Positions 13,794 to 30,524 of a stretch of DNA of 64,000 nucleotides are shown here, piece after piece. Both the position numbers and the translations under genes were made by a program. The notes beneath the pieces are model-generated. The model was not told the origin of the DNA and did no database searches. It worked only from the letters and a program-made list of their open reading frames with translations. Numbering within the stretch: the stretch's first letter is position 1; every line of letters begins with the position of its first letter. Source of the stretch: Vicinamibacterales bacterium (GTDB taxonomy: Bacteria > Acidobacteriota > Vicinamibacteria > Vicinamibacterales > UBA2999); assembly GCA_050185275.1 (NCBI GenBank), contig JBFWZN010000003.1, positions 147,436 to 211,435 of the forward strand, read 5' to 3'.

Positions 13794-14384
13794 ATGACTT
13801 TCTGTCCTGACTTCGGCGAAGTGACACAAATCACGGCCGGGAAGCATGTACGCGCGGTCGGCTGGCTGAGTATCAATCACGACTACACCACGGGCAATGC
13901 CCCCGGCGACTTCGTGGCGCGTCTGCGAGAGTTCTGCGCTAACTACTCGGCGTCCGAAGACGAGCTCGGGTTCGGCATGTTCTGTGGCTTCCACACGTGC
14001 GAATTCTGCGGCGACTGTCGTGGCATTGGAAACGTGGGAGTGCCCGCCGGCGATCTCCTCTACGTGGCGCCGGAGATGATTCATCACTACGTGACGGCGC
14101 ACCGGTATTTGCCGCCGGCTGAGTTCGTGGAGGCTGTCATGGCGTGCCCACTGCCGGGGACGGCAGAGTACAAGCGGCTTGCGCATCCCTTTCGCGAGCA
14201 TCAAGCCGCGTTCGAAAGGGAATGTTTCAACATCACGGTGCGAACGGCCGCGAAGTGGGCATTCGAGAACGGGGGCGAGTCGCGGATACCGACAGCGATA
14301 TCGTGCTACTTCATCAGCAGGGACGCGGAATGCGAGCGCTTGGTCCGCGCCGAGTTCGCGGCCCTCACCAACAGGAAGGGCTGA
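13794..14384 (+). CDS. hypothetical Cys-rich protein (conserved-looking core GFHTCEFCGDC...GNVGVP...LYVAPEMIHHYVTAHRYLPPAEFVEAV)
   Basis: 196-aa ORF in a locally lower-GC pocket with an AGGAGGG RBS before the ATG. The motif pattern resembles an uncharacterised actinobacterial/soil-bacterial DUF family. The family name was not verified. Confidence 0.5.
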   Translation: MTFCPDFGEVTQITAGKHVRAVGWLSINHDYTTGNAPGDFVARLREFCANYSASEDELGFGMFCGFHTCEFCGDCRGIGNVGVPAGDLLYVAPEMIHHYVTAHRYLPPAEFVEAVMACPLPGTAEYKRLAHPFREHQAAFERECFNITVRTAAKWAFENGGESRIPTAISCYFISRDAECERLVRAEFAALTNRKG

Positions 14385-14394
14385 CCGCGGCACC

Positions 14395-15963
14395 CTAAGC
14401 CCGCGCCGCCATCAGCGCCGCCAGCTCCCCCACGTTGCCCAGCGCGTCCAGCGCGTTCACCCGCTCCACGATGGCCTGCGCGCGCGCCTCGCCCAGCACT
14501 GGCGCGATGAGGCTGCGGGCCTTGTCCGCCACCTGCGCGTACGAGAGCGGGTTCTCCCGGGTGCCGGGCGCGTGGCGGGTGAACCGCTCCACCGTGCGCC
14601 CGTCGGCGAGCGTCACCTGCACCAGGCCGCTGCGCGGGGCGCTGGGGTCGTCCAGCTGCGGATCCCCGATGAGGGTCACGCGCTCCCGTACCGCGCGCAC
14701 GGCGGGGTCCGACATCCGTTCGCGCGAGTGGCTGGCGTCGAACGAGACGGTGCCGTCCACGAGTGCCACCGCCATGAGGTGCTGGCAGTTCACGTCGGGC
14801 ATCGGGCTGTTGTCCACGATGCCGGCGCCGTCGGGCGGCATGCGCACCACGATGCGCGACACCGAGGCCGGCGTGAGCGCGTGCTCCCGGTACAGGCTCA
14901 GGAACGCGTCGAGCGGTGACTGGATGGGATAGCCCACCGAAAACACCTTGATGGCTGTCTCCGACACGTAGAAGCGCGACCCGAGGTCGGCCACCAGTTC
15001 CTCGGGACGCGGCACGGTGGACAGCGCCTGCACCAGGCTGCGCGTGCCGTCCAGCACGTCGTCCACGCCGGTGAACCCCGCCATCACCATGGTGGCGCCC
15101 GCCACGCCGTTGCGCGCCCCCATGCCCGAGAAGTCGAACGCCTTCTCGGTGTGGTCTTCATCGCGGCGCCAGCTCCACAGCCCCGACATCTGTTGCGCGG
15201 CATAGGAGAGCGCAAAGCGCATCTGCCGTTCGTCGAACCGCGCCATCGCCGCCGCGGCGGCTGCGGCGCCAAACGTGGAACTCAGCCCCTCGGCGCTCCG
15301 GTGCGTGGCGCGCACATGATCCGGCCCCAGCGCCATCAGCACGCGGCAGCACAGGTCGTAGCCGAGCACCACGGCCCGGATGAACTCGCGCCCCGGCCGG
15401 CCCTGCCACTCACCCACCGCCAGCGCCGCCGGCACCACGCTGCAGCCGGGATGCGCCTTCGTCACCGGCTCGAAGTCGTCCGTCTCGTCGGCGTGCGCCA
15501 GCATCCCGCCGGCGAAGGCCGCGTTCACCGCCGTGGTGCGGATGTTGGTGCAGGCCACCGACGCCTGCGGCGTGCCGCCCTGCTCCCGCACGTAGGTCAT
15601 TGCCAGCTGGCCGGGCGGGAGCGACGAGCCAGACACGATGGCCGCCAGGGTGTCGAGGATGCGCGCCTTCGCGTCGTCCATGGCCTGCGCCGGGATGTCG
15701 CGGCCGGGGGCGGCGGCCATGTAGCGCGCGAGCCGGCCCGTGAGGTCGCTCCCGGCCTGGGCTGGAGCCGCCTGTGCTGCCTGGGCCGTCTGCGTCGCCA
15801 GTGCGGCCTGCGCCGCCTGCGCCAGCGTGGGCGTGGGCTGCATCACGTGCGCACCGGCCAGCAGGCCCGCCACGGCGCCGCCGGCGGTAGAGAGCGCCTC
15901 GCGACGCGTGGGCTGGTGCGCGCGGACTCGGGTGCGTGGCGATCGCCTGGTCATGGGCGCCAT
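14395..15963 (-). CDS. MmgE/PrpD-family protein with an N-terminal Tat-like signal
   Basis: ARILDTLAAIVSGSSLPPG and HADETDDFEPVTKAHPGCSVVPAALAVGE are typical PrpD-family motifs. The N-terminus TRREALSTAGGAVAGLLAG is followed by an AQ-rich linker. The start is 15963 or 15954. Confidence 0.8.
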   Translation of the reverse strand: MAPMTRRSPRTRVRAHQPTRREALSTAGGAVAGLLAGAHVMQPTPTLAQAAQAALATQTAQAAQAAPAQAGSDLTGRLARYMAAAPGRDIPAQAMDDAKARILDTLAAIVSGSSLPPGQLAMTYVREQGGTPQASVACTNIRTTAVNAAFAGGMLAHADETDDFEPVTKAHPGCSVVPAALAVGEWQGRPGREFIRAVVLGYDLCCRVLMALGPDHVRATHRSAEGLSSTFGAAAAAAAMARFDERQMRFALSYAAQQMSGLWSWRRDEDHTEKAFDFSGMGARNGVAGATMVMAGFTGVDDVLDGTRSLVQALSTVPRPEELVADLGSRFYVSETAIKVFSVGYPIQSPLDAFLSLYREHALTPASVSRIVVRMPPDGAGIVDNSPMPDVNCQHLMAVALVDGTVSFDASHSRERMSDPAVRAVRERVTLIGDPQLDDPSAPRSGLVQVTLADGRTVERFTRHAPGTRENPLSYAQVADKARSLIAPVLGEARAQAIVERVNALDALGNVGELAALMAARA

Positions 15964-16130
15964 TCTGCGGGGGATTGGGGCGGGGACACAAGCTGCGGAC
16001 GCAAGCCAGGCCTGCTCTCCGAGTAGCCTCGGGAACAACCCTCAGGAGTAGACCACCTGTTCCATTGTGCAGGCCGATCGTGCCTGCCACACTCGCACCC
16101 CATTCCGGGCCCTGCCCGCAAGGAGGCGTG

Positions 16131-16796
16131 ATGCACACGATGGTTGCCCTGCTCACCGCGGCGATGGTTCTCGCGGCGTCCCTGGCCGAAGGCGCGCCCC
16201 TGCTCGTGAACGGCAGCTTCGAGCAGGGCCCGCCGATGGGCGGGCTCCACGACGTGGACGTGCTGGCGGCCTCCACGTCCATCGTCGGCTGGACGGTGTT
16301 CGGCCAGTCGGTGGACTACATGGGGCCGCCGTGGGACGTCTCGGACGGCGCCCACGCGGTGGACCTGGACGGCCGCAACGCACTCTTCAGCGGCATCAGG
16401 CAGGCGTTTGCCACTGATGTCGGGGAGTGGTACCGCCTGTCGTTCGACCTGTCTGGCAACCCGCAGGGCGGCGCGGCCATCAAGCGCGTGCTGGTGTCGG
16501 TGGGTGTGATCACACGCGACTACCAGTTCGACACGTCGGGCCAGTCCGTCACCACCCTCCTCTGGGCACCCGTGTCGCTGCAGTTCCAGACCTTCGAGCC
16601 CTCGACCACGCTGTCGTTCATGAGCCTCACCGGAGCACCCAGCAGCTACGGCGCGGCCATCGACCATGTAGTGGTGGAGCGCGCTGTGCCGGTGCCGGAG
16701 CCGGGGGCGCTTCTGCTGCTCGTGTCGGGGCTCGCGGGCTGGGTGGTGGTCCGTCGGCAGCGGGCCGATGGTAGCATGACGCGGCCTGAGCCATGA
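16131..16796 (+). CDS. PEP-CTERM protein with DUF642-like lectin/jelly-roll domain
   Basis: AAGGAGG RBS and signal peptide MHTMVALLTAAMVLAASLAEG. LVNGSFE...GWTV...DGAHAVDLDG resembles DUF642. The C-terminus is VPVPEPGALLLLVSGLAGWVVVRRQR. Confidence 0.75.
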   Translation: MHTMVALLTAAMVLAASLAEGAPLLVNGSFEQGPPMGGLHDVDVLAASTSIVGWTVFGQSVDYMGPPWDVSDGAHAVDLDGRNALFSGIRQAFATDVGEWYRLSFDLSGNPQGGAAIKRVLVSVGVITRDYQFDTSGQSVTTLLWAPVSLQFQTFEPSTTLSFMSLTGAPSSYGAAIDHVVVERAVPVPEPGALLLLVSGLAGWVVVRRQRADGSMTRPEP

Positions 16797-17047: not shown

Positions 17048-17384
17048 CGAGCGGCCGAGGCCGAGGGCCTTACGCCCTGCCCCACGTGCAAGCCGAGACC
17101 CACGGGAAGCAGAGCCCTCTAGTACGCGCTCGCTAGCCCCAGAGCGACATTCACCTCTTCAAGAGCGGCCTGAGCACCGACCCGGCGCGTGCTGCTCACC
17201 GCTTCTCAAAGCTGGTGGCTTCGCTCTTCATGAGCTCGTCGAACTAGACCAACTCACCTTGAGGCCTTAGGTCTTTGAGAAATCATACGACGGAGCATGG
17301 CCGCTGCAGCATCGCCGTCTGCTCACGGCCATTTCGCACGCAGCCTGTAGAGTTGCTCTCATCCTCCATGGTCACGCATAGTAA

Positions 17385-19478
17385 CTAGTGGTCCAGGGCT
17401 GCGGACCAGTGCGCGTCATCCGATCGGATGTTCCAGGAGCCAGTTTCCAGAAACGTCCGTGCCGTCGATTCGGCTACGAGGAGCGCATCGATCAACACGC
17501 TGGTCGGGTCCATCACGCCTGCGACTGCCAGATCCTCAGTCGATCGAGTCACCGCATTGAAGCCAACGTTGGGATCTGCGCGCAAGAGTTCTCCGATGAG
17601 CGCATCGGAATCAGTTCCACCTGCGACGGCTATCGCCCGCAGCGGCTCCTGCAGCGCCACCCGCGTCGCATCAACGCCCACCTGCTCCCCGTCGCTGTGT
17701 ACCGCGAGTTGTTTCAACGCATGCGATGCCATCTGAAGCGTACGACCGCCTCCTGGCACGCCACCCGCGATCACCGCCGCCGCAGCTGCGTGCAAAGAAC
17801 TTTCGGTTCGATATCTCTTCACATGCATTTCCTGTGGAGTTGTCGCACCTAGGTGGATCGTCACGACCGATCCTACGAGGTTGGCGATCCGCGCTCTCAG
17901 CAGCGCCGCGTCGTACGGCGATGCTGACTTCGCCGTCGCGCGCAAGACATCAACGTGTTCCTGCAATGCGCGATGATCTCCGCGGCCTCCAACGATTTCA
18001 GTCTGATCTCGGCCAACGATTACCTTGTCAGCACTGCCGAGGTGTTGACTGGCGGCTGTCCCTAGGTTGGCGCCGGCCTCGGGATCCAGAAGAGTCGCTC
18101 CGGTCAGGATCGCTAGGTCTTGCAGGATCTCGCGGCGACGTCCTTCCGAACGCGGTGCACGCACGGCAACGCAAAGCAGCGTCCCTTTTTTGACATTGAC
18201 AATCAACGTGGCCAGCGCTTCGCCTGCCACGTCGTCTGCGACAATGAGCAGCGGCTGCCCTCTCCTAGCGACAACCTCCAAGAGAGGGAGCAACTCTTGC
18301 ATTGACGTGACCTTGCTCGCGTAGAGAAGAATTGCGCAGCCATCAAGCACGCACTCATGGCGTGGGTAGCATGTAACGAGCTCAGGGTGAAGTGCTCCTC
18401 GGTCGAGGGTCATGTGATCGACTCTCGTGACGGAGCTGCTAGCACCGCGACTCTCCTCCACGAGGACGATGCCGTTCGGGCCGGCAGATGTGAACGCGGC
18501 CCACACGTCTATCTCGAGCCGACCGTGCGAAGCTGTATCAACGACTGCTCGCCCGCAATCAGCTCCGTCTACCGATGATTGACGGAGGTAGTCGACGGCA
18601 GCGGCGATCGCCTTGGAGATTCCATTCAGTAGCTCGGACCGTGCCGCGCCCCGGCCGATTGCCGCCAGCGCCTCCTCAATCAGGGCGTGGGAAACAATCA
18701 CTGGCAGTTTGGAGCCATCGCCTCCCTTCTCGACCAACTGAGCGGCGGCTCCGGCCATCAGGCGTATGCCCGCCTCCTCGAATGGGTTGGCGGATCGGAT
18801 CGCTCGCGCGATCTCGATGCCGCGCCTCTCAAGCCGCACGCCACCACCGCGACTGTCGACTCCCAAGCCTACGCCGTCCGGCCCGTACGCCCGTCTGATC
18901 GCAGTGGCCACTGCTCGCACGCCATGAAGCGCCAGCTCCTGCTGTTGCGCGGGCGCAACATCGCTCAGATCGGGCGCTGATGTTGCCAGTTCGGCCCTAA
19001 TGATGTTCAAGACCGGATTGGTGTAGGGCTCGTCACCCGCCTCCCAGCGTCTCAGCTTCTCAATGAGGTGGCCTTCGAGCGGCCGGTAGTCGTAGGGGTC
19101 GTACGGGTGTGTGTAGAAGCCATAGATGTCAAAAATTCGCCGGTTGTCGGTCTGCTGCTCCCGGATGAGGATCACTGGTCGCACCGAGGTCGCCAACCTG
19201 ACACCAAGTTCGTACATTACGTTCGGATTGGGATCGACACCGGACAGATCCGCCACGACGATGTCCGCGCGACACAGGTCGCGAATGATTTCCGCATTAA
19301 TGTCGAAAGATTGACCCGATCGGTAGACCTCGTATCGGTCGCGCAGGTCAGCACTCTCAATCGGTCGCTTGATGTTGTTCTCGAAGAATGCCGTGAGCTG
19401 TGCTTCATTCCTGCTTCCTCCATCAATGAACGGCATGATGACGAAGACGCGTCGAAGTACCCGATCAACGGCTGACAT
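17385..19478 (-). CDS. fusion protein: N-terminal nucleoside 2-deoxyribosyltransferase/TIR-like domain plus full-length GroEL/Cpn60-like chaperonin module
   Basis: Residues 1-110 carry [29 protein letters not shown] and PVILIRE (NDT/Rcl-type pattern). Residues about 180-690 are colinear with E. coli GroEL. Paired segments (this protein / GroEL): YGPDG / [11 protein letters not shown] / GDGTTT; MTLDRG / [41 protein letters not shown] / [56 protein letters not shown] / [31 protein letters not shown] / KVGAATEVEM; VPGGG / [12 protein letters not shown] / ILDPTKV. There is no GGM tail and no groES neighbour. Confidence 0.85.
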   Translation of the reverse strand: [697 protein letters not shown]

Positions 19479-19986: not shown

Positions 19987-20331
19987 AAAGGCACAAAGCG
20001 GGACGGCAGCGCCTGCTGCGTAGCTACTCGTCACGGCGGTAGGAGAGGCAGTGACGGCAGCTGGCCAATCCTCGTTTCGTTCAGGTCCGTAGGACGCGGG
20101 CGGACACGAAGACAGGCATCGGCAAGGAGGCCTTCCCGGAGATGCCCGGCGGCACACCGGGGTCCGTGCCGCTCGCTCGTAGGGCGATCGCGCCCCCGAT
20201 GACCCGTCCTTTCTCCTGCAAAGGGGCATTCCCACCCCGTTGCAGGCTCACCCTCCACGGCCTCGCAGGTAGAATGCCAGCTCGTCCGGAATGGGCGTGT
20301 GCCTCTCGTTCTTCGTCCTGGAGTGTCTAGC

Positions 20332-22317
20332 GTGGATAACGGCAACCTGAGCTGGATCACCAGCTTCATCTGGGGCATCGCCGACGACGTGCTCCGCGAC
20401 CTGTACGTCCGGGGCAAGTACCGGGATGTCATCCTGCCGATGACCGTCCTGCGCCGGCTCGACGCCGTTCTCGAGCCGACGAAGCAGGCCGTGCTCGACA
20501 TGAAGGCTTCGCTCGACAAGGCGAAGATCACGAACCAGGACCAGGCCTTGCGCCAGGCAGCCGGGCAGGCGTTCTACAACACCTCGAAATTCACGCTCCG
20601 CGACCTGAAGGCCCGCGCCAGCCAGCAGCAGCTCAAAGCCGACTTCGAGGCCTACCTCGACGGCTTCTCGCCGAACGTCCAGGACATCCTCGAAAACTTC
20701 GAGTTTCGCAACCAGATCCCGCGGCTCTCGAAGGCCGACGCGCTGGGCACGATGATCGCGAAGCTCCTGTCGCCCGACATCAACCTGAGCCCGAATCCCG
20801 TCCTGAACGATGACGGCTCGGTGAAGCATCCCGGCCTCGACAATCACGGGATGGGCTCGGTCTTCGAGGAGCTGGTTCGCAAGTTCAACGAGGAGAACAA
20901 CGAAGAGGCCGGCGAGCACTGGACGCCCCGCGACGCGGTGCGGCTCATGACAAGGCTCATGTTCCTGCCCATCGCCGAGCGGATCGAGTCGGGCACCTAC
21001 CTGCTCTACGACGGCGCCTGCGGCACGGGCGGCATGCTCACGGTCGCGGAGGAGACGCTCCAGCAGCTCGCGCGGGAGCACGGCAAGCAGGTGGCGACTC
21101 ACCTCTACGGCCAGGAGATCAACGCCGAGACCTATGCCATCTGCAAGGCAGACCTGCTGCTCAAGGGCGAGGGCGACGCGGCGGACAACATCGTCGGCGG
21201 CCCGGAGCACTCCACGCTCGCGAACGATGCCTTCCCTTCGCGCGAGTTCGACTTCATGCTCTCGAACCCGCCTTACGGCAAGAGTTGGAAGAGCGACCTC
21301 GAGCGCATGGGCGGCAAGGACGGCCTCAAGGACCCGCGCTTCCTGATCGAGCACGCGGGCGATCCGGAGTACTCGCTCATCACCCGCTCGAGCGACGGCC
21401 AGATGCTCTTCCTCGCCAACATGCTCTCGAAGATGAAGCACGCCACCGTGCTCGGCAGCCGGATCGCCGAGGTGCACAACGGCAGCTCGCTTTTTACCGG
21501 CGACGCCGGCCAGGGCGAGAGCAACATCCGCCGCTGGATCATCGAGAACGACTGGCTCGAGGCCATCGTCGCCCTGCCGCTCAACATGTTCTACAACACC
21601 GGCATCGCCACCTACATCTGGGTGCTGTCGAACCGCAAGCCGGCGCCCCGCAAGGGCAAGGTGCAGCTCATCGATGCCACGCAGTGGTTCAAGCCGCTGC
21701 GCAAGAACCTCGGCAAGAAGAACTGCGAGCTCTCCGACGAGGACATCGCGCGCATCTGCGACACCTTCCTCGCCTTCGAGGAGACCGAGCAGTCGAAGAT
21801 CTTCCCGAACGTCGCCTTCGGCTACTGGAGGGTCACCGTCGAGCGGCCGCTGCGCCTGAAGGGCATCGACCCCGAGCGCGCGTACGCCGCCAAGGAGATC
21901 AAGACGCTCAAGGAGACGGCCGAGCGCGCCAACGATGCCCCGCCGGTCATCAAGAAGATCCACAAGAAGGGCACGGCGGCCGATCCGCTGCGCGGCCTCT
22001 TCGAGGCCACGATCGGCGGCAAGCCCGCCGTGGTCGAGTACGAGCCCGACTCCGACCTGCGCGACACCGAGCAGGTGCCCCTGCTCGAAGAGGGCGGCAT
22101 CGAGGCCTTCCTGCGCCGCGAGGTCCTGCCGCACGCCGCCGACGCCTGGTACGTGGGGGACAGCGTCAAGACTGGCTACGAGATCAGCTTCACCCGCTAC
22201 TTCTACAAGCCGCTGCCGCTGCGCACGCTGGAGGAGATCCGCGCCGACATCCTGGCATTGGAGAAGGAGACCGAGGGGCTGCTGGGCGAAATCATCGGGT
22301 CCACTAACACCCAGTGA
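20332..22317 (+). CDS. hsdM: type I restriction-modification system, DNA methyltransferase subunit M
   Basis: HsdM N-terminus LSWITSFIWGIADDVLRDLYVRGKYRDVILPMTVLRRLD. SAM motif YDGACGTGGML and catalytic NPPYG (FMLSNPPYGKSW). GTG at 20332 has a GGAG 8 nt upstream; the ORF extends to 20299. Confidence 0.92.
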   Translation: MDNGNLSWITSFIWGIADDVLRDLYVRGKYRDVILPMTVLRRLDAVLEPTKQAVLDMKASLDKAKITNQDQALRQAAGQAFYNTSKFTLRDLKARASQQQLKADFEAYLDGFSPNVQDILENFEFRNQIPRLSKADALGTMIAKLLSPDINLSPNPVLNDDGSVKHPGLDNHGMGSVFEELVRKFNEENNEEAGEHWTPRDAVRLMTRLMFLPIAERIESGTYLLYDGACGTGGMLTVAEETLQQLAREHGKQVATHLYGQEINAETYAICKADLLLKGEGDAADNIVGGPEHSTLANDAFPSREFDFMLSNPPYGKSWKSDLERMGGKDGLKDPRFLIEHAGDPEYSLITRSSDGQMLFLANMLSKMKHATVLGSRIAEVHNGSSLFTGDAGQGESNIRRWIIENDWLEAIVALPLNMFYNTGIATYIWVLSNRKPAPRKGKVQLIDATQWFKPLRKNLGKKNCELSDEDIARICDTFLAFEETEQSKIFPNVAFGYWRVTVERPLRLKGIDPERAYAAKEIKTLKETAERANDAPPVIKKIHKKGTAADPLRGLFEATIGGKPAVVEYEPDSDLRDTEQVPLLEEGGIEAFLRREVLPHAADAWYVGDSVKTGYEISFTRYFYKPLPLRTLEEIRADILALEKETEGLLGEIIGSTNTQ

Positions 22318-22350
22318 GACCAGAACAATGAACGCCCGAAGGGAAAACCG

Positions 22351-24942
22351 ATGGCGCTAGAGGAGCTCATCGTCGCCTGGAGCAAGGAGCGCCCCGCATG
22401 GCAACGGGAAGTCATGCGTCGGGTGGCAACCGGTGAGACGCTCTCCGACAAGGAGTACGACCGGCTAGTTGAAGTCATCGTGGAGGCGAAGGAGCTCCCG
22501 GCGGGCGACTTCGGACTTGAGCAGTTTCCCCGGACGGAGGCTGAAGACCTTCCCGTCTGCCTCGCGGCGATCGAGAAGCCTGAACACGTCAACGCGCTGG
22601 AATCCAAGGAGCCTCTGACCTTCGAGCCGCGAGGCTTAACCATTGTGTACGGCGACAATGGGAGCGGAAAGTCCGGCTACGCGAGGCTGCTGAAGCGCAT
22701 CACGCGGGCTCGTCACAGAGAGGACGTCCTGACGGACGTTTTTCGCGACACCTCCCTGGCACAACCGACCGCTGCGCTTTCCGTCCGGATCGGGAACGCG
22801 CAGGAGTCCCTTTCTTGGCCGGAGTCCTCCCGTCCTGAGCTGCAGCGCATGCTCTTCTATGACGCCGCCTGTGGCAGTGCGTACATTGCGAGTGAGTCCG
22901 ATTTCCCGTATCGCCCCTCCGCGCTCTTTGTCATGGACGGACTGATCGAGGCCTGCGTGGCGGTCCGCGCACGCCTTGATACCAAGCTCGCGGAGAACGG
23001 CGTTTCAGCCAACCCGCTGCCTACCGTCCCCGACCAATTGCGAGAGAGTGATGCCGGCCGGTTCCTGTCTTCCTTCTCGGCGCAATCCTCCGTCGAGAAG
23101 CTAGATCAGTTGATCGAGAGGTTCGACACGGCCAAGGAGACGATCGAGGATCTAAAGAACCAAGAAGCACGCCTGCGCAGCGCTGACACGACCAAGGCCC
23201 GTCAGCAACTCACCCGGCAGTGCGAGAAACTCCTGGCGCTGCGCAACCACCTAGGAAACCTTGACGCGGTGCTGGGCAGCGTGGCTCTCGCTGAGTTTCG
23301 ACAGCACCAGGCCGGGGTCAAGACACTCGAAGGTGCGGCAGCCCTGCTTGCCCGGTCCTTCGAATCTGAGCCCCTGCCGGGCGTTGGAAGCAGTCCCTGG
23401 AAGGCCTTGTGGGAAGCGGCCCAGCGCTTCTCGAGGGAGCACACATACCCGGACCACGACTTCCCCTTCCTGGGGAGTGATTGCCGGTGCGTCCTGTGCC
23501 AGCAACCGCTGGAGGCGGAGGGCCGAGATCGCTTCGCTCGCTTCGACGAGTTCGTTCGCAACGACACTCAAGTCCGCCTACAGGATGCGAAGCGCACCTA
23601 CGACCAGAAGGCAAAGATTTTGCGAGAGATTCAGGTCTCGCCGGAGGCCATCGCGAACAACCTCAAGGATCTGGAAGAGACGAATGGCGACGTCGTCTCC
23701 GATGTGCGCGCGCTACTCACGAAATACGACGCGGTAAATGCACAGGTGCGCGAGTCACTGGCCAACCAGCGGGAGCTTCCTTCGATCGCAATCGAGCAGG
23801 CAACGACCATCGACCTCCTCAATGGAGCCAATGACGCGGCAATGGCCGCTGCCGAGGAACTCGCGAACCCAGAGGGGATCCAGAAGCACCTCGAGGCTCT
23901 CACTGCGAGACGGGCGGAGCTTGAGCTGCTAGAGCTGCTCAAGAAGTCGCGGCAAGCGATCGCCAAGGAGATCGCGCGCTTAAGGGAGCGTGAGGCGCTG
24001 GAAGCGGCCAAGAGCGCTGCCGCGACGACGGGTATCACGAAGAAGATACTGGAGCTCTCCGAGGAGAGCATCACTGAGGTGGTTCGCGACACCTTCACGA
24101 GAGAGTCAGAAAGGCTCCGGCTCGAACGTGTGACGATCGCCCGTACCCGTGCGGATAAGGGAGCCCTGCTTCACCAACCGAAGCTCGTCGGGGCGCGCCA
24201 GCAGGTTACGTTGCCCAAAGTGTTTAGCGAGGGCGAGCGGACTGCGCTGGGACTGGCAGCGTTCTTCACCGAGGCACACCTCGACGGCTCGAAGTCGGCT
24301 CTCATCCTAGATGATCCCGTGACGTCGCTCGATCACATCCGCCGCGGTCTCGTCGCGACGCGGATTGCGGCCCTCGCCGAGACTCGACAGGTGATCCTGT
24401 TCACCCACGACATCGCGTTCGTGGCAGACCTCAAGCGCGAGGCCAGTGCCAAGGGTGTTCAGGTTGCGGAGCGGTCGGTCATGAGGAGCCGGGCGGACGA
24501 GCGTAAGCCTGGTGCCTGCACAACAAAGCACCCCTGGAAGGCCAAGGACGTACCGGCCCGCCTCGAAGAGCTCCGACAGGAGCTCAGCAGAATCAAGAAG
24601 GAGAGCACCGCCTGGGAAGAACAACAGTATGAGGATGCCGTGGCAGTCTGGGCCGGCAATCTGTCGGAGACCTGGGAGCGCATCTTCAGCCAGGAGATCG
24701 TCGGGCCCGTCCTCGCGGAAGGTGGTCTCGAGGTGCGCCCGATGATGGTGAAGGTCTTGGCTCGCTTCTCCGACGACGATCACCATGAGTTCGAGGGCAG
24801 CTACGGCCGGGTGTCGCAGTGGGCGAGGCGGCACGACAAGAGCGCCGCCGTCAATTACGTCGCCCCCGACATCGAGAAGCTCGAGGAAGAGCTTCGCTCG
24901 GTGGACGGCTGGTTCAAGCGCGTCAAGGGATACAAGGCATGA
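22351..24942 (+). CDS. AAA_13-type ABC/SMC-like ATPase with coiled-coil and CxxC hook; RloC/PrrC-like candidate anticodon nuclease
   Basis: Walker A GDNGSGKSG (22651-22674). Long heptad-rich region contains CRCVLCQQPL (23482-23499). ABC-signature-like FSEGERTALGLAAFF, Walker B LILDDPVTSLDH and H-loop-like LFTHD are present. A C-terminal domain of about 170 aa contains TWERIFSQE...RRHDKS. The gene sits between hsdM and hsdS. Confidence 0.8.
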   Translation: MALEELIVAWSKERPAWQREVMRRVATGETLSDKEYDRLVEVIVEAKELPAGDFGLEQFPRTEAEDLPVCLAAIEKPEHVNALESKEPLTFEPRGLTIVYGDNGSGKSGYARLLKRITRARHREDVLTDVFRDTSLAQPTAALSVRIGNAQESLSWPESSRPELQRMLFYDAACGSAYIASESDFPYRPSALFVMDGLIEACVAVRARLDTKLAENGVSANPLPTVPDQLRESDAGRFLSSFSAQSSVEKLDQLIERFDTAKETIEDLKNQEARLRSADTTKARQQLTRQCEKLLALRNHLGNLDAVLGSVALAEFRQHQAGVKTLEGAAALLARSFESEPLPGVGSSPWKALWEAAQRFSREHTYPDHDFPFLGSDCRCVLCQQPLEAEGRDRFARFDEFVRNDTQVRLQDAKRTYDQKAKILREIQVSPEAIANNLKDLEETNGDVVSDVRALLTKYDAVNAQVRESLANQRELPSIAIEQATTIDLLNGANDAAMAAAEELANPEGIQKHLEALTARRAELELLELLKKSRQAIAKEIARLREREALEAAKSAAATTGITKKILELSEESITEVVRDTFTRESERLRLERVTIARTRADKGALLHQPKLVGARQQVTLPKVFSEGERTALGLAAFFTEAHLDGSKSALILDDPVTSLDHIRRGLVATRIAALAETRQVILFTHDIAFVADLKREASAKGVQVAERSVMRSRADERKPGACTTKHPWKAKDVPARLEELRQELSRIKKESTAWEEQQYEDAVAVWAGNLSETWERIFSQEIVGPVLAEGGLEVRPMMVKVLARFSDDDHHEFEGSYGRVSQWARRHDKSAAVNYVAPDIEKLEEELRSVDGWFKRVKGYKA

Positions 24943-26381
24943 TCGCTGACCTAAGGCCCTATAACGCGATGAAGGACTCCGGCGTGCCGTGGCTGGGGGA
25001 GGTGCCGGAACATTGGGAGGTGAGAAAGCTCCGACAGGTGCTGACTCGCTGCGCCGAACGGAACCGGCCTGACTTGCCCCTTCTATCCGTAGTTCGCGAA
25101 CGGGGAGTGATCCTCCGCGATACAACAGGTGGCGATGAGAATCACAACTACATCCCTGACGACTTGAGCAACTACAAGGTGGTTCGTTCAGGCCAGTTTG
25201 CCATGAACAAAATGAAGGCCTGGCAGGGCTCGTATGGTGTGTCCCGGTATGACGGCATCGTCAGTCCTGCCTACTTCGTCTTCGAGCTTTGCGACGTCAG
25301 TGGGTCGTTTTTCAACGCGTCAATCCGCTCACGAGCGTACGTGCCTGCTTTCACGCAGGCGTCCGACGGCGTCCGAATCGGCCAGTGGGACTTGTCCGAG
25401 ACTCGAATGCGCGAAATCTCGTTCGTGGCCCCACCCCTCCCCGAACAAGCCGCCATCGTCCGTTTCCTCGACCACGCGGACCGGCGGATTCGGCGTTACA
25501 TCCGCGCCAAGCAGAAGCTGATCAAGCTGCTGGAGGAGCAGAAGCAGGCCATCATCCACCGCGCCGTCACCCGCGGCCTCGACCCCAACGTCCGCCTCAA
25601 GCCCTCCGGCGTGGAGTGGCTGGGGGATGTGCCGGAGCACTGGAAGGTGGTGCGACTTAAGTCACTGGTGTCCCGTGTGACAAGTGGTTCTCGCGGGTGG
25701 TCCAATTTCGCGGCCGACTCTGGAGTACTTTTCATTCGGATCGGAAACCTTACACGAGCGTCGCTCGATCTCGATCTCGAAAGCAGCGTCCGCCTTCAGC
25801 TACCCGCGAACGTGCTCGGCGAAGCCGCCAGAACCCGGGTTCAGCCGGACGACATCCTCCTGTCGATCACCGCGTTTATTGGGTCTGTGGCAGTCGTGCC
25901 CTCTGAGATCGAGGAGGCATACGTCAGCCAGCATGTCGCTTGCTGTCGACCTCGTGCGGGGGTCGCCAACTCACGCTGGGTTGGATACGTGCTGCTGTCG
26001 AACGTCGGTCAGACGCACGGGCAGCTCAGTATGTATGGAGGAACAAAGCAGGGCCTGTCACTCGATGACGTCAAGAACTACGTGGTTATGGTTCCTCCGC
26101 GGAACGAGCAAGATCGGCTCGTCGAATGGATTGAGCACGCGACGGCGACACTGAGCGCGCGCATCAGGAGCGCTCAGCGCAAGGTCGCCCTCCTCCGCGA
26201 ATACCGCACCCGCCTGATCGCGGATGTGGTCACTGGTAAGCGCGACGTGCGCGAGGCGGCGGCGCGGCTGCCGGACGAAGTCGAAGAACCAGAGCCGCTC
26301 GACGAGATCGAGGCCAATGGCGACACCGAAGAGGCAGGCGTCGACGACACCGACGCCGTGCCGGAGGGGGCGGAGGCATGA
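24939..26381 (+). CDS. hsdS: type I restriction-modification system, specificity subunit S (two target-recognition domains)
   Basis: Duplicated TRD entry motifs VPWLGEVPEHWEVRKL and VEWLGDVPEHWKVVRLKSL. Two conserved coiled-coil spacers: EQAAIVRFLDHADRRIRRYIRAKQKLIKLLEEQKQAIIHRAV and EQDRLVEWIEHATATLSARIRSAQRKVALLREYRTRLIADVV. ATGA overlaps occur with both neighbouring genes. Confidence 0.92.
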   Translation: MIADLRPYNAMKDSGVPWLGEVPEHWEVRKLRQVLTRCAERNRPDLPLLSVVRERGVILRDTTGGDENHNYIPDDLSNYKVVRSGQFAMNKMKAWQGSYGVSRYDGIVSPAYFVFELCDVSGSFFNASIRSRAYVPAFTQASDGVRIGQWDLSETRMREISFVAPPLPEQAAIVRFLDHADRRIRRYIRAKQKLIKLLEEQKQAIIHRAVTRGLDPNVRLKPSGVEWLGDVPEHWKVVRLKSLVSRVTSGSRGWSNFAADSGVLFIRIGNLTRASLDLDLESSVRLQLPANVLGEAARTRVQPDDILLSITAFIGSVAVVPSEIEEAYVSQHVACCRPRAGVANSRWVGYVLLSNVGQTHGQLSMYGGTKQGLSLDDVKNYVVMVPPRNEQDRLVEWIEHATATLSARIRSAQRKVALLREYRTRLIADVVTGKRDVREAAARLPDEVEEPEPLDEIEANGDTEEAGVDDTDAVPEGAEA

Positions 26382-29380
26382 CCACCGACACCTCCGAACG
26401 CGGGCTCGAGCGGCTGATCTGCACGGTGCTCACCGGGGCGGCCTGCGATCCGGGGGCGGTCAAGGCAGATGCCGTCCGCGAGCGTCCCGCCGTCTATGGC
26501 GCGGGCTGGAGCTGCGGCGCGCCCGAGGACTACGACCGCGAGTACTGCGTGGACCTCGCCCAGCTCTTGGCCTTCCTGCTCGAGACGCAGCCGGACGTGG
26601 CCGACGCGCTCGACCTGGGTGAGGACGGGCCGACGCGGCGCAAATTCCTGGCGCGGCTCCAGGGCGAGATCACCAAGCGCGGCACCATCGACGTGCTGCG
26701 CCACGGGCTCAAGCACGGGCCGCACCACCTCGACATCTTCTACGGCACGCCCTCGCCGGGCAACGCCAGGGCCGCCGAGCGCTACGCCCAGAACCGCTTC
26801 AGCGTCACCCGCCAGCTCCGCTACAGCCGCGACGAGACGCAGCGCGCGCTCGACCTGGGCCTGTTCATCAACGGCCTGCCCGTCGCCACCTTCGAGCTGA
26901 AGAACAGCCTGACCAAGCAGACGGTCGCCGACGCCGTGGAGCAGTACCAGCGCGACCGCGACTCGCGCGAGAAGCTCTTCGAGTTCGGCCGCTGCGTGGT
27001 GCACTTCGCCGTGGACGACCACGAGGTGCGCTTCTGCACGCACCTGAAGGGCAAGGGCTCGTGGTTCCTGCCCTTCAACCAGGGCTGGAACGACGGCGCC
27101 GGCAACCCGCCCAACCCGAACGGCCTCAAGACCGACTACCTGTGGAAGCGCGTCCTCACCCGTGAGGGGCTCACCGACATCCTCGAGAACTATGCGCAGG
27201 TCGTCGAGACCAAGGACGAGAAGACCGGAAGGAAGAAGGCGGTGCAGATCTGGCCGCGCTTCCACCAGCTCGATGTGGTGCGACGGCTGCTCGCCGACGC
27301 GCAGGCGAGCGGCGCAGGCCGGCGCTACCTGATCCAGCACTCGGCGGGCAGCGGCAAGTCCAACTCGATCGCCTGGCTCGCGCACCAGCTCATCGGGCTG
27401 AAGAAGGACGAGGCGACGGTCTTCGACTCGATCATCGTCGTCACCGACCGCAGGATCCTCGACCAGCAGATCAAGGACACCATCAAGCAGTTCGCGCAGG
27501 TGGGCGCCACGGTCGGCCACGCCGAGCGCTCGGGCGACCTGCGCAAGTTCATCGCCGAGGGGAAGAAGATCATCATCTCCACGGTGCAGAAGTTCCCGTT
27601 CATCCTCGACGAGGTCGGGAGTGAGCACCGCGGGCGACGCTTCGCGATCGTGATCGACGAGGCGCATTCGAGCCAGGGCGGGCGGACCTCGGCCGCATTG
27701 TCGATGGCGCTCTCCACCACCGGGGCCGGGGAGGACGACGACACCCTCGAGGACCAGATCAACCGGCTCATGAAGGCGAAGAAGCTGCTGCCCAACGCCA
27801 GCTACTTCGCCTTCACCGCCACGCCCAAGAACAAGACGCTCGAGATCTTCGGATATCCCGAGCCGCAGACCGATGGCACGGTGAAGCACCGGCCGTTCCA
27901 CAGCTACACGATGAAGCAGGCGATTCAAGAGGGCTTCATCCTGGACGTGCTCGAGCACTACACGCCGGTCGAGAGCTACTACAAGCTGGTCAAGAAGGTG
28001 GAGGGCGACCCCGAGTTCGACACCAAGCGCGCGAAGAAGAAGCTGCGCCGCTATGTGGAGAGCCACGACCACGCGATCCGCCTAAAGGCCGAGATCATGG
28101 TGGACCACTTCCACGAACAGGTGCTTGCGCTGAGAAAGATCGGCGGCGAGGCCCGCGCGATGGTGGTGACCAGCGGCATCGAGCGCGCGATCCAGTATTA
28201 TTTCGCGATTCGCGACTACCTCACCGAGCGCAAGAGCCGATATCAGGCCATTGTGGCGTTCTCGGGCGAGCACGAGTACGGCGGCGCGAAGGTGACGGAG
28301 GCGTCGCTCAACGGCTTTCCGTCGAGCCAGATCGCCGACACGATCCAGGTGGATCCGTACCGGTTCCTGGTCTGTGCCGACAAGTTCCAGACCGGCTACG
28401 ACGAGCCGCTGCTGCACACGATGTACGTGGACAAGGTGCTCTCGGGCATCAAGGCGGTGCAGACGCTGTCGCGGCTCAACCGCGCGCACCCGAAGAAGCA
28501 CGACGTGTTCGTGCTCGACTTCATGAACGACTTGGACACGATCCAGGAAGCGTTCGCGGACTACTACCGCACCACGGCGCTGGCCGAAGAAACCGACCCG
28601 AACAAGCTGCACGACCTGAAGGCCGCGCTCGATGGCTACCAGGTCTACACCCGGTTGCAGGTGGACGGCCTCGCAGCGCTCTACCTGGGTGAGGCGGACC
28701 GCGACCGGCTCGATCCCATCCTCGACGCGTGTGTCGCCGACTACCGGGAGCAGCTCGACGAAGACGGGCAGGTGGATTTCAAGGGCAAGGCCAAGGCCTT
28801 CCTGCGGGCCTATGGGTTCCTCTCAGCGATCCTGCCGTACACCAACGCCGACTGGGAGAAGCTCTCCATCTTCCTCACGTTCCTCGTGCCCAAGCTGCCG
28901 GCGCCCGTTGAGGAAGACCTGGCCAAGGGCATCCTCGAGGCGATCGACATGGACAGCTACCGTGTGGAGAAGCAGGCGGTGGCCAGAATCCAGCTCCCGG
29001 ACGCGGATGCGGAGATCGAACCGGTGCCGACCACCGGTGGCGGCCACAAGCCCGAGCCGGAGCTCGACCGGCTGTCGAACATCTTGAAGACCTTCAACGA
29101 CCAGTTCGGGAACATCCCTTGGGCAGATGCGGACCGAATCTACCGCAAGATCACCGAAGACATTCCGTCGAGGGTTGCGGCTGACCCTGCATTTCAGAAC
29201 GCGACCAAGAACTCGGACAGGCAGAACGCGCGCATCGAGCACGACATGGCGCTTCAGCGAGTCGTGGTGGGCATGATGAAGGACGACACCGAGCTGTTCA
29301 AACAGTTCATGGACAACGAAGGGTTCCGGCGCTGGATGACGGACACCGTCTTCAAGCTGACCTACGAAGCGGCTGGCTAG
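26378..29380 (+). CDS. hsdR: type I restriction endonuclease subunit R (SF2 helicase/translocase-nuclease)
   Basis: N-terminal PD-(D/E)xK region ALDLGLFINGLPVATFELKN. Helicase motif I HSAGSGKSNSIAW and DEAH box VIDEAHSSQGG. The C-terminal region is typical of HsdR. Confidence 0.93.
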   Translation: MTTDTSERGLERLICTVLTGAACDPGAVKADAVRERPAVYGAGWSCGAPEDYDREYCVDLAQLLAFLLETQPDVADALDLGEDGPTRRKFLARLQGEITKRGTIDVLRHGLKHGPHHLDIFYGTPSPGNARAAERYAQNRFSVTRQLRYSRDETQRALDLGLFINGLPVATFELKNSLTKQTVADAVEQYQRDRDSREKLFEFGRCVVHFAVDDHEVRFCTHLKGKGSWFLPFNQGWNDGAGNPPNPNGLKTDYLWKRVLTREGLTDILENYAQVVETKDEKTGRKKAVQIWPRFHQLDVVRRLLADAQASGAGRRYLIQHSAGSGKSNSIAWLAHQLIGLKKDEATVFDSIIVVTDRRILDQQIKDTIKQFAQVGATVGHAERSGDLRKFIAEGKKIIISTVQKFPFILDEVGSEHRGRRFAIVIDEAHSSQGGRTSAALSMALSTTGAGEDDDTLEDQINRLMKAKKLLPNASYFAFTATPKNKTLEIFGYPEPQTDGTVKHRPFHSYTMKQAIQEGFILDVLEHYTPVESYYKLVKKVEGDPEFDTKRAKKKLRRYVESHDHAIRLKAEIMVDHFHEQVLALRKIGGEARAMVVTSGIERAIQYYFAIRDYLTERKSRYQAIVAFSGEHEYGGAKVTEASLNGFPSSQIADTIQVDPYRFLVCADKFQTGYDEPLLHTMYVDKVLSGIKAVQTLSRLNRAHPKKHDVFVLDFMNDLDTIQEAFADYYRTTALAEETDPNKLHDLKAALDGYQVYTRLQVDGLAALYLGEADRDRLDPILDACVADYREQLDEDGQVDFKGKAKAFLRAYGFLSAILPYTNADWEKLSIFLTFLVPKLPAPVEEDLAKGILEAIDMDSYRVEKQAVARIQLPDADAEIEPVPTTGGGHKPEPELDRLSNILKTFNDQFGNIPWADADRIYRKITEDIPSRVAADPAFQNATKNSDRQNARIEHDMALQRVVVGMMKDDTELFKQFMDNEGFRRWMTDTVFKLTYEAAG

Positions 29381-29491: not shown

Positions 29492-30514
29492 TCACGCAAC
29501 CAGGGCCAGCAGGTCTTGATGGATCGCCTGCCAGGGCTGGGCAAGGTTGATCGTTCGGATGCTGATCCGATGGTCGTTGTACATGTAGGAGGCTGACAGC
29601 GCCGTATCGGCCGTCGGGTACAGCAGGATGGCCTCGCACCCCGCATCCTCCGACGGCAGGTTGTCCAGATACGCGTTCAATTGGTACAGGTGCGCTGAGC
29701 GCAGTGTGTGCGCATCAGACATGTAGTGGCGCTGCGTCACAAGCGGCGTGTACTTGCACTCGATGATGATCTTCCTGTCCTCGGCTGTCAGGCTCACGTC
29801 TGTCTGCATCCGCGGGAGCAGGTCGTCGGCGCCATGATCTTCAGGAACCCAGCCGAACCGGATGTTCTCGCGTTTCACGCGATACCGGCTGTGCAGGCGG
29901 TAGAAGTGCCTGACGAACCCCTCGTAGAGCGCCGCCATCTGCTTCTCGTCGCGTGTGAAGTCGTTGAAGCTGCTCCGGCCAGGCGTTTCGGAGATCAGTA
30001 GGTTCCGATGGATCAGCTCGCACACCTTCATCAGGAAGTCGTAGAACCGGTTGTTTCTATGCAGCTGCACCTGGCCGAAGAGCCGGCTTCGGATCTCGAT
30101 GTCGCGCACATCAGACAGCTGGCGCACCAGGCCTGTAAGGGCCGCCGCATTGTTGCGCGATACGCCTCGCACGTGAAGCAGTTGGCGGGCTGTCGCCTTG
30201 AGAAGCTGGTTGTGCAGGATGTCGTAGCTCAGCTCGTCGAACTCGCAGGGCAGGGTCGCTGTCAGCACACCCGCCTTCGTTGCGGCATCGAAGAGCAGCT
30301 TGCCTCGCAAGCGGCCCGTCCACTCCTCGTGTGCCACATAACTCCGGTCGAAGCCGCGCTTCAGGAGGTGATTCGTACCGGTGACGAGCACCCGTGCGAA
30401 CAGGTTGACGAGTTCCGTGACACCGACCGCGTCCACATCGACGACATCCCTCTCTTCTAGCTTGTCCCAGGCGTAGCACAGCAGGAAGTAGATGTTCTGG
30501 ATCGGGATCTCCAT
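29492..30514 (-). CDS. mcrC: McrC-like nuclease subunit of a McrBC modification-dependent restriction system
   Basis: Typical McrC N-terminus IQNIYFLLCYAWDKLEERD. PD-(D/E)xK core MQTDVSL...KIIIECKYT. It lies directly downstream of mcrB. Confidence 0.88.
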   Translation of the reverse strand: MEIPIQNIYFLLCYAWDKLEERDVVDVDAVGVTELVNLFARVLVTGTNHLLKRGFDRSYVAHEEWTGRLRGKLLFDAATKAGVLTATLPCEFDELSYDILHNQLLKATARQLLHVRGVSRNNAAALTGLVRQLSDVRDIEIRSRLFGQVQLHRNNRFYDFLMKVCELIHRNLLISETPGRSSFNDFTRDEKQMAALYEGFVRHFYRLHSRYRVKRENIRFGWVPEDHGADDLLPRMQTDVSLTAEDRKIIIECKYTPLVTQRHYMSDAHTLRSAHLYQLNAYLDNLPSEDAGCEAILLYPTADTALSASYMYNDHRISIRTINLAQPWQAIHQDLLALVA

Positions 30515-30524
30515 CGGCTACGTC

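Follow-up and report, generated by a model that had tools for sequence, protein, structure and literature searches.

Chaperonin modules reused for interaction or assembly are known from eukaryotes, where the Cpn60_TCP1-like domain of PIKfyve/Fab1 and the CCT-like proteins BBS6, BBS10 and BBS12 are chaperonin-derived platforms with divergent nucleotide sites; they descend from group II chaperonins and have no known link to effectors of immunity. Prokaryotic immunity proteins of the Avs/STAND, TIR-fusion and caspase-fusion types carry an N-terminal effector in front of a C-terminal sensing or oligomerising module, and they are encoded by stand-alone genes which lie in defence islands and are sporadically distributed. 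bNACHT25 reportedly senses via DnaJ, which is a case of chaperone-linked sensing (PMC12169576). Retron Ec86 (Retron-Eco1) uses an NDT-like (nucleoside 2-deoxyribosyltransferase-like) effector, and its dimerisation is required for defence (bioRxiv 10.1101/2023.08.16.553469). Here we describe a gene from a Vicinamibacterales bacterium in which an NDT-like domain is fused to a GroEL-like module. It lies at positions 17385..19478 on the minus strand of a 64,000-nucleotide stretch of contig JBFWZN010000003.1 (positions 147,436 to 211,435; GenBank assembly GCA_050185275.1), which is called the window in the following. The fusion resembles the immunity proteins named above in its domain order, its stand-alone gene, its location and its sporadic distribution, and differs from them in that the sensor or scaffold is a chaperonin. 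With Ec86 it shares an NDT-like N-glycosidase-type domain, in our case with a predicted role as antiphage effector, and the activity of this domain depends in Ec86 on the oligomeric state; there the regulators are a reverse transcriptase and multicopy single-stranded DNA (msDNA) instead of a chaperonin module. The reading that we favour, at somewhat better than even chances, is that the fusion is a stand-alone, horizontally mobile abortive-infection protein, in which a divergent group I chaperonin no longer cycles and would serve its NDT-like N-glycosidase effector as an oligomeric sensor or scaffold.

The open reading frame (ORF) encodes 697 amino acids (aa). It starts with the NDT-like domain (residues 1–150, 19029..19478 (-)), followed by a helical linker (residues 151–179, 18942..19028 (-)) that was delimited by secondary structure and predicted local distance difference test (pLDDT) values of the model together with the family alignment. 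The GroEL-like module with its equatorial, intermediate and apical domains (residues 180–680, 17439..18941 (-)) was assigned by PRK12849 and Foldseek, and a C-terminal tail (residues 681–697, 17388..17438 (-)) completes the protein. The linker stands in for approximately the first 13 GroEL residues including the N-terminal strand, residue 183 being the equivalent of GroEL L17. The AlphaFold2 model of all 697 aa has a mean pLDDT of 90.1. A first-pass annotation, made from the DNA letters alone, had described the span 17385-18941, corresponding to residues 180–697 plus the stop codon, as a GroEL-like module with a remodelled nucleotide pocket and a partly kept apical surface, and had suggested that it probably no longer cycles like a housekeeping chaperonin and may act as an ATP-binding or ATP-independent oligomeric scaffold or sensor. 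An identical protein from a public Vicinamibacterales metagenome-assembled genome (MAG) is annotated as 'chaperonin GroEL'. This public annotation (P0001, 683 aa) begins 14 residues later, at M15 (window 19437-19478 (-)), and thereby loses the conserved first β-strand VFVIMPF, which is found in all homologues. Translation of the fusion more likely begins with the ATG at 19478.

Residues ~180–680 match PF00118 with an E-value of 8e-32. The NCBIfam model PRK12849 (NF009487), a looser subfamily model, gives 390 bits and is above its cut-off of 352; the GroEL equivalog TIGR02348 gives 364.5 bits and is below its cut-off of 582.1. Searches with phmmer against GroELs in the PDB resulted in E-values of 1e-80 to 2e-90 across the whole module, and the local BLOSUM62 alignment with E. 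coli GroEL shows 35% identity over 496 columns. Using Foldseek, the whole model could be superposed on GroES-bound GroEL subunits (8wuc_A, 1aon_A) with a template modelling (TM) score of 0.91 and a root-mean-square deviation (rmsd) of 1.8–2.1 Å, the rmsd to GroES-bound subunits overall being 1.8–2.6 Å, and in this model the three-domain Cpn60 fold is complete. The AlphaFold2 monomer is closer to the open, GroES-bound subunit (rmsd ~2 Å) than to apo GroEL (~12–13 Å), which, for a monomer predicted without templates, may simply mirror what the method has learned.

In GroEL, D87 binds Mg2+, and residues such as G32-P33, G414/G416 and D495 contact the nucleoside. D52 and D398 flank the water molecule that attacks the γ-phosphate, and hydrolysis needs K+ (PMC10723157). 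Both catalytic aspartates are lost in the window protein: E217-R218-R219-G220 (18819..18830 (-)) takes the place of GroEL T50-K51-D52-G53, and E559-S560-S561 (17796..17804 (-)) that of E397-D398-A399, with TESSLHA instead of VEDALHA. T30 of the K+ site is lost as well in A197-Y-G199-P200 (18879..18890 (-)), the equivalent of T30-L31-G32-P33, in which the G-P pair is kept, and the phosphate loop D87-G-T-T-T reads D254-G-S-K257-L258 (18705..18719 (-)). Still present are the nucleotide-contact turn G576-G-G578 (17745..17753 (-), GroEL G414-416) and the ribose-contact aspartate in V655-M-D657 (17508..17516 (-), GroEL I493-L-D495). Except for the loss of T30, these substitutions and retained residues had been read by hand in the first-pass annotation, and the computed alignments agree with that reading. 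Alignments with phmmer, BLOSUM62 and MAFFT reproduced the altered phosphate loop residue for residue and placed the changes K51-D52 to R-R and D398 to S in the same register, G32-P33, GGG414-416 and D495 being retained, and none of them shifted the register in a way that restores DGTTT, D52 or D398. At GroEL 150–153 (ISAN) the register moves by one residue between pairwise and multiple alignment, and N153 is lost either way.

A homologue search over 5.8 billion proteins yielded 56 further full-length fusions of 673–758 aa, giving a family of 57 together with the window protein, and positions were counted in an 83-sequence MAFFT alignment. All 57 share the two-domain architecture, and their sources belong to at least four phyla (Acidobacteriota, Gemmatimonadota, Verrucomicrobiota and Fibrobacteres). 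The mean pairwise identity of their GroEL modules is 31%, about equal to their distance from canonical GroEL. T90 is replaced by lysine in 56/57, D398 is never an aspartate (S 43, E 8, T 2, R 2), position 52 is an aspartate once (R 28, Q 9, T 6, S 4, D 1) and T30 is exchanged in every member (A 48, S 9). Further changes around the pocket are I150 to T (54/57), a deletion of S151 (56/57), N153 to A or S (49/57) and M520 to W (55/57), with A152 kept in 54/57, while K51 is semi-conserved as K (22) or R (19) in 41/57. Among the residues that persist are G32 (57/57), P33 (56/57), G53 (54/57), D87 (53/57), G88 (56/57), G414 (51/57), G415 (39/57), G416 (46/57) and D495 (56/57), and N479 is N or D in 53/57. 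Altogether 19 columns are invariant in the fusion family, including N428 (GroEL N265), and K257 is nearly so (56/57). As this pattern recurs across homologues that average only 31% identity, it is far beyond chance, and the family-wide substitutions have removed the residues for hydrolysis as well as the K+ site, with the nucleoside framework kept and a lysine gained in the phosphate loop. The conservation of the substitutions among homologues, on which the first-pass annotation had wanted its proposal to be checked, therefore refines it: judged from the alignment, the pocket is remodelled into a new conserved family state and goes beyond simple degradation or decay. From the same residues we infer that ATP turnover, and with it cycling, is very probably lost; ATP or another ligand may still bind to the remodelled pocket.

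Compared to housekeeping GroEL (E. coli, TIGR02348), the fusion thus has the full fold at 35% identity, the groove residues of helices H and I, G32-P33, D87-G88, GGG and D495 in common, and it differs by the loss of D52, D398 and T30, the changes K51 to R and DGTTT to DG[ST]K, the added N-terminal enzyme domain and the lack of a GGM tail, of conserved inter-ring contacts and of a groES partner. At the ring–ring interface K105, A109, E461, S463 and V464 are not conserved and R452 is kept in 30/57. Instead of the (GGM)n tail of GroEL there is a tryptophan-containing segment, whose W682 is nearly invariant across the family. No Cpn10/groES gene is adjacent in the window or present in seven homologue contexts, and the homologues elsewhere are likewise single genes without groES. 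These features and the family-wide loss of catalytic and K+-site residues lend comparative support to the idea of a non-cycling scaffold or sensor. The laboratory mutants D398A and D52A/D398A of E. coli GroEL, which are neutralised at the two catalytic positions that are also lost in the fusion, reportedly bind ATP and GroES and hydrolyse extremely slowly (Rye et al. 1997, Koike-Takeshita et al. 2008). These mutants would be a precedent for binding without cycling, whereas the changes in the fusion, which may or may not still bind ATP, are natural, occur family-wide and come along with T30A, T90K, the loss of N153 and the effector fusion.

In the 57-sequence alignment conservation is highest in residues 1–150, with M15, P16, F17, I64, D77, N84, N86, V87, E90, L91, G92, F116, D117 and Y126 invariant. 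The motif N84-P-N-V-M-Y-E90-L-G92 (19203..19229 (-)) contains E90 as putative catalytic nucleophile, and in a profile alignment E90 coincides with E88 of the Chroococcidiopsis NDT and with the Glu of FEVG in the T. brucei NDT. E88 is the residue mutated in the PDB entries named E88Q and E88A. PF05014 matches 53/57 homologues at E<=0.01 (best E 1.5e-5). A Foldseek search with the domain model (pLDDT 84) returned NDTs as the top 25 matches, followed by the CMP N-glycosidases BcmB/MilB and by DNPH1, with E-values of 9e-6 to 4e-3 and modest TM scores of ~0.5. By sequence and by model the domain is predicted to be an NDT-like N-glycosidase of the nucleoside 2-deoxyribosyltransferase superfamily and would act as the effector. 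A TIR identity of the domain was rejected, as it has no Pfam TIR or TIR_2 match and as no TIR is found among the top 50 Foldseek matches.

A word-indexed homologue search with the N-terminal domain alone did not recover the full-length fusions; its matches were for the most part short fragments, and they showed that the domain occurs with other C-termini. A pattern scan for the domain across 185,579 GTDB species representatives led to 442 confirmed relatives, and among the best 80 of these 442 loci four are full fusions. Twenty of the best 80 loci were examined and contain smaller ORFs of ~270–380 aa, with the exception of one disrupted fusion copy (L015). The C-termini of these smaller ORFs are unknown helical regions, and a PcrA/UvrD Tudor domain was found in two of the ten that were scanned against Pfam. 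In helicases, the PcrA/UvrD Tudor domain is an RNA-polymerase-binding module, and the Tudor fusion suggests another choice of sensor for the same effector. On the basis of these architectures the NDT-like domain is portable between C-terminal modules. The arrangement with a C-terminal Tudor domain occurs in Segetibacter aerophilus (L026, 6019-6819) and Paenibacillus hodogayensis (L036, 5938-6792). Distant homologues of the N-terminal domain (~30–35% identity) are present in temperate phages of Staphylococcus, Streptococcus and Dorea, and others are encoded on plasmids, some being annotated as 'TRAFs-binding domain-containing protein'. In the copy from L015 (6001-8954, Acidobacteriota MAG) ~685 residues are matched over ~2.95 kb and the first ORF stops after 548 aa; it may be disrupted or carry an insertion.

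The apical domain (residues 354–538, GroEL 191–376; 17865..18419 (-)) resembles GroEL more closely than the rest of the module does. When the fusion family is compared to the canonical consensus, the identity reaches 0.41 in this domain and 0.22–0.29 in the others, and the window protein itself is 0.42 identical to E. coli GroEL in the apical and 0.31 in the equatorial domain. Helix H (L396–406, GroEL 233–243; 18261..18293 (-)) and helix I (A418–431, GroEL 255–268; 18186..18227 (-)) are the two walls of the client/GroES groove. Here, L234, L237, L259 and V264 are identical and V263 is changed to I in the window protein, which agrees with the retained or conservatively changed residues that had been described for it before. 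Across the family position 234 is occupied by L, I, V or M, and thus stays hydrophobic, in 50/57, position 237 by L (48) or M (8) in 56/57, V264 remains hydrophobic, and E238 (51/57), L259 (42/57), T261 (50/57) and N265 (57/57) are kept. The lower lip of the groove is altered, with A362-L-H-P-E366-L367 (18378..18395 (-)) in place of GroEL Y199-L-S-P-Y203-F204. The first-pass annotation had given these three exchanges as Y199, Y203 and F204 to A, E and L, and A362, E366 and L367 bear this out for the window protein. As a general trait the loss of Y203 holds family-wide, whereas Y199A and F204L are limited to the subclade of the window protein, since position 199 is still Y in 26/57 and position 204 still F in 42/57.

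To look beyond this family, the GroEL module alone was used as a profile in an exhaustive hidden Markov model (HMM) search of 1.84 billion cluster representatives. Of 38 newly retrieved proteins with a K90 pocket, 28 carry an NDT-like N-terminal extension of ~170 aa, and the other ten comprise P0163, which is a STAND-like fusion, P0192, which is a fusion cut short, and eight proteins of lesser length that are probably truncated. The combination of a D-x-[STA]-K pocket and a residue other than Asp at position 398 mostly goes along with an N-terminal extension; matches of canonical length keep TKD, DGTTT and D398. Two proteins are TIR_2-GroEL fusions with the pockets DGSAI and G398 (P0202) and DGAAT and S398 (P0241). 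P0162 (1172 aa) consists of a caspase (Peptidase_C14) and two GroEL-like segments without the N-terminal P-loop region, and P0163 (1161 aa) has transmembrane and STAND-like P-loop NTPase parts with a K90-type GroEL module at the C-terminus, where it occupies the place of the STAND sensor repeats; each of these two is known from a single representative sequence. Locus L011 was grouped with these two observations. GroEL-like modules with damaged pockets are therefore found in the sensor position behind NDT-like, TIR, caspase and STAND-like NTPase domains.

In a neighbour-joining tree, calculated without support values, the K90 modules including that of P0163 form one clade, and the TIR fusions are located among canonical actinobacterial GroELs. 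A separate and recent recruitment of the TIR-GroEL lineage follows mainly from P0202, the GroEL part of which is 65–70% identical to ordinary Actinomycetota GroEL. We counted substitutions at those sites that do not vary among 116 canonical relatives and compared equatorial and apical domains by a Fisher test. P0202 is changed at 44/109 equatorial and 10/86 apical positions (p 1e-5), P0241 at 63/109 and 7/86 (p 9e-14). The apical identity to canonical GroEL is 0.80–0.82 for both, and the equatorial identity 0.54 (P0202) and 0.38 (P0241). The changed sites of P0202 include N51A, G53P, G86R, T89S, T90A, T91I, D398G and A480V as well as the inter-ring positions 105, 461, 462 and 464. At the level of sequence, the two lineages thus converge, with ATP site and ring–ring interface damaged and the apical domain spared, and this independent recurrence beside immune-type domains also speaks for the scaffold or sensor role proposed in the first-pass annotation.

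Other unusual GroELs were observed as well. P0030, P0035, P0052 and P0096 (~1080 aa) are two complete GroELs in tandem, both halves having the canonical DGTTT and D398. In P0173, P0174, P0184, P0197, P0210 and P0251 (777–1193 aa in total) a GroEL whose pocket is mostly canonical is extended at the C-terminus by a long segment; position 398 is G in P0184 and P0251 and N in P0210, and the loop of P0184 reads DGSTT. P0182 and P0195, in which hepatitis B core antigen is joined to a GroEL with a canonical pocket, were left out as they are almost certainly a synthetic construct.

How might such a protein work? The N-terminus of GroEL faces the equatorial opening of the ring. The module is predicted to still form a ring, probably a single one, and seven effector domains of ~19 kDa would be too large for the cavity and would gather at the equatorial face, to which the second ring is docked in canonical GroEL. 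This arrangement is proposed because the domains would not fit the cavity and because the inter-ring contacts are lost. Nucleotide would perhaps still be bound and not turned over. A trigger would bind to the apical groove, and candidates are a mobile loop like that of GroES and a phage protein that is non-native or depends on GroEL; alternatively, a ligand in the remodelled pocket could be the trigger. Binding would shift the ring in such a way that the NDT-like domains reach an active dimeric or oligomeric arrangement, and the active effector would cleave N-glycosidic bonds of nucleotides or of NAD+, leading to the arrest of the infected cell and to abortive infection. We regard an immune role of the fusion as likely, and the more specific assumption that the apical domain is the sensor as tentative, with chances slightly short of even. 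Many phages need the host GroEL for the folding of capsid or portal proteins or bring GroES-like co-chaperonins. A rather doubtful but attractive extension would be an integrated chaperonin decoy, in which a non-cycling GroEL with a preserved apical groove traps phage proteins or mobile loops irreversibly and thereby switches on the fused toxin.

Several findings weigh against this picture of a chaperonin-controlled immunity protein. The assignment of the effector is weak in the window protein, where PF05014 matches with an E-value of 8e-4 and 20 bits and thus does not reach its gathering score (28.8); the PDB profile E-values for an NDT are also weak (0.02), and the PADLOC model 'Effector TIR' matches the same domain weakly (E 4.8e-6). 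In the groove, position 203 is never Y in the 57 fusions, 30 of which have D or E there. The exchange Y203E in E. coli GroEL is reported to abolish the binding of polypeptides and of GroES (Fenton et al. 1994). By analogy, the groove probably has an altered specificity and may not bind generic clients. Allosteric contacts, R197-E386 among them, are conserved poorly, and it is therefore uncertain whether a signal could pass from the apical to the equatorial domain. With regard to location, one homologue context is a polysaccharide biosynthesis cluster, and a position next to defence or mobile genes is seen in the window and a handful of contexts, which are single cases and not a statistical enrichment.

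Among the other explanations, an unlikely one is that the ring only oligomerises and restrains the effector and that the remodelled pocket, not the apical groove, reads a nucleotide, a signalling nucleotide or nucleotide depletion. The invariant K90 and the retained D87, D495 and GGG would then form a new, non-hydrolytic ligand site. Conceivably, K90 might stand in for the K+ ion or form a salt bridge with D87. This would fit to a pocket that is strongly conserved in its new state and not randomised (K90 56/57, T150 54/57, deletion of S151 56/57, S398 43/57) and to the retained nucleoside-contact residues. However, the TIR-GroEL and caspase-GroEL proteins do not have the K90 state, as they show DGSAI/G398, DGAAT/S398 or no P-loop segment at all, and they keep an apical domain with ~80% identity to canonical GroEL. 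Since the apical domain is what the TIR and caspase fusions keep while the K90 state is missing in them, selection seems to have acted on the apical domain in all of these fusions.

Quite improbable is a non-immune paralogue, meaning a chaperonin-like platform fused to an enzyme of nucleoside salvage or nucleotide metabolism, for example for its stabilisation or compartmentalisation. The NDT family does include metabolic enzymes, and the homologue in the polysaccharide/nucleotide-sugar cluster would agree with such a function. Against this stand the sporadic distribution, with four full fusions among the best 80 loci after scanning 185,579 GTDB species representatives, the shuffling of the N-terminal domain onto other C-terminal modules and its presence in prophages and on plasmids, the sister architectures with TIR, caspase and STAND-like domains, an atypical codon GC, and neighbourhoods that are mobile or defence-related. 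The GC content at third codon positions (GC3) is 0.66 in the fusion gene and 0.77–0.92 in the neighbouring genes. One homologue is accompanied by insertion sequence (IS) transposases and a YhcG nuclease, another lies beside HigBA, a third is located together with a STAND-like gene, ParE/Phd and a SNF2 helicase, and a fourth is found on a plasmid-like contig with a relaxase, ArdC, a Cas3-like gene and ParA. That the gene is a decaying groEL duplicate or an annotation artefact, a near-pseudogene joined by chance to an upstream ORF, is hardly credible and effectively refuted by the family conservation, since the lost catalytic residues and the plain 'chaperonin GroEL' label are opposed by intact ORFs of ~680–720 aa with conserved domain order in at least 57 homologues across phyla, 19 invariant columns, K257 in 56/57 and a model pLDDT of 90.

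Regarding novelty, PADLOC-DB v2.0.0 contains no model for the GroEL part and gave no match to the whole protein, only the weak one to the N-terminal domain. In the open full-text literature no description of a chaperonin-effector fusion was found, the mentions of GroEL being loading controls or unrelated, with subscription-only papers outside the search. The logic of fusing effector and sensor is known; a chaperonin as the sensor or scaffold module appears to be unprecedented, and a prior description is possible. The name GroEL derives from phage growth defects, and GroEL is among the best-understood molecular machines. If the abortive-infection reading is true, the fusion would represent a new type of sensor module for prokaryotic immunity, offer a way to ask whether bacteria detect phages via their reliance on host chaperones, and provide natural hydrolysis-dead chaperonins for structural work. 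A decoy, if true, would be a bacterial analogue of the integrated decoys of plant nucleotide-binding leucine-rich repeat (NLR) proteins and would have arisen at least twice, in the NDT-like K90 clade and in the actinobacterial TIR-GroEL clade, with an extension to caspase and STAND-like NTPase. The label 'chaperonin GroEL' on such genes misleads genome annotation as well as cpn60-based marker surveys.

In the window the fusion gene appears to be monocistronic, as it is divergent from the upstream hsdM and convergent with a downstream DUF642/PEP-CTERM gene. A promoter scan around the gene found no promoter-like site, and a terminator scan gave one weak terminator-like site (17287-17304 (-)), a count no higher than predicted by shuffles. 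Upstream follows a type I restriction-modification (R-M) operon (20299-29380 (+)) with hsdM (20299-22317 (+)), hsdS (~24819-26381 (+)) and hsdR (26378-29380 (+)). Between hsdM and hsdS it contains an 863-aa ABC/AAA_13-type ATPase (22351-24942 (+)), which matches the PADLOC candidate PDC-S06 end to end (E 1.9e-166). Beyond this operon an McrBC-like pair is encoded (29492-33065 (-)), composed of McrC (29492-30514 (-)) and an 846-aa McrB homologue (30525-33065 (-)) with EVE (modified-base reader) and AAA_5 GTPase-type domains, the N-terminal region of which matches PADLOC PDC-S02. On the other side of the low-GC3 insertion there are a DUF7919 protein (13794-14384 (+)) and the DUF642/PEP-CTERM exported protein (15936-16796 (+)), and a tRNA-Ser (TGA) is located at 1472-1561 of the window.

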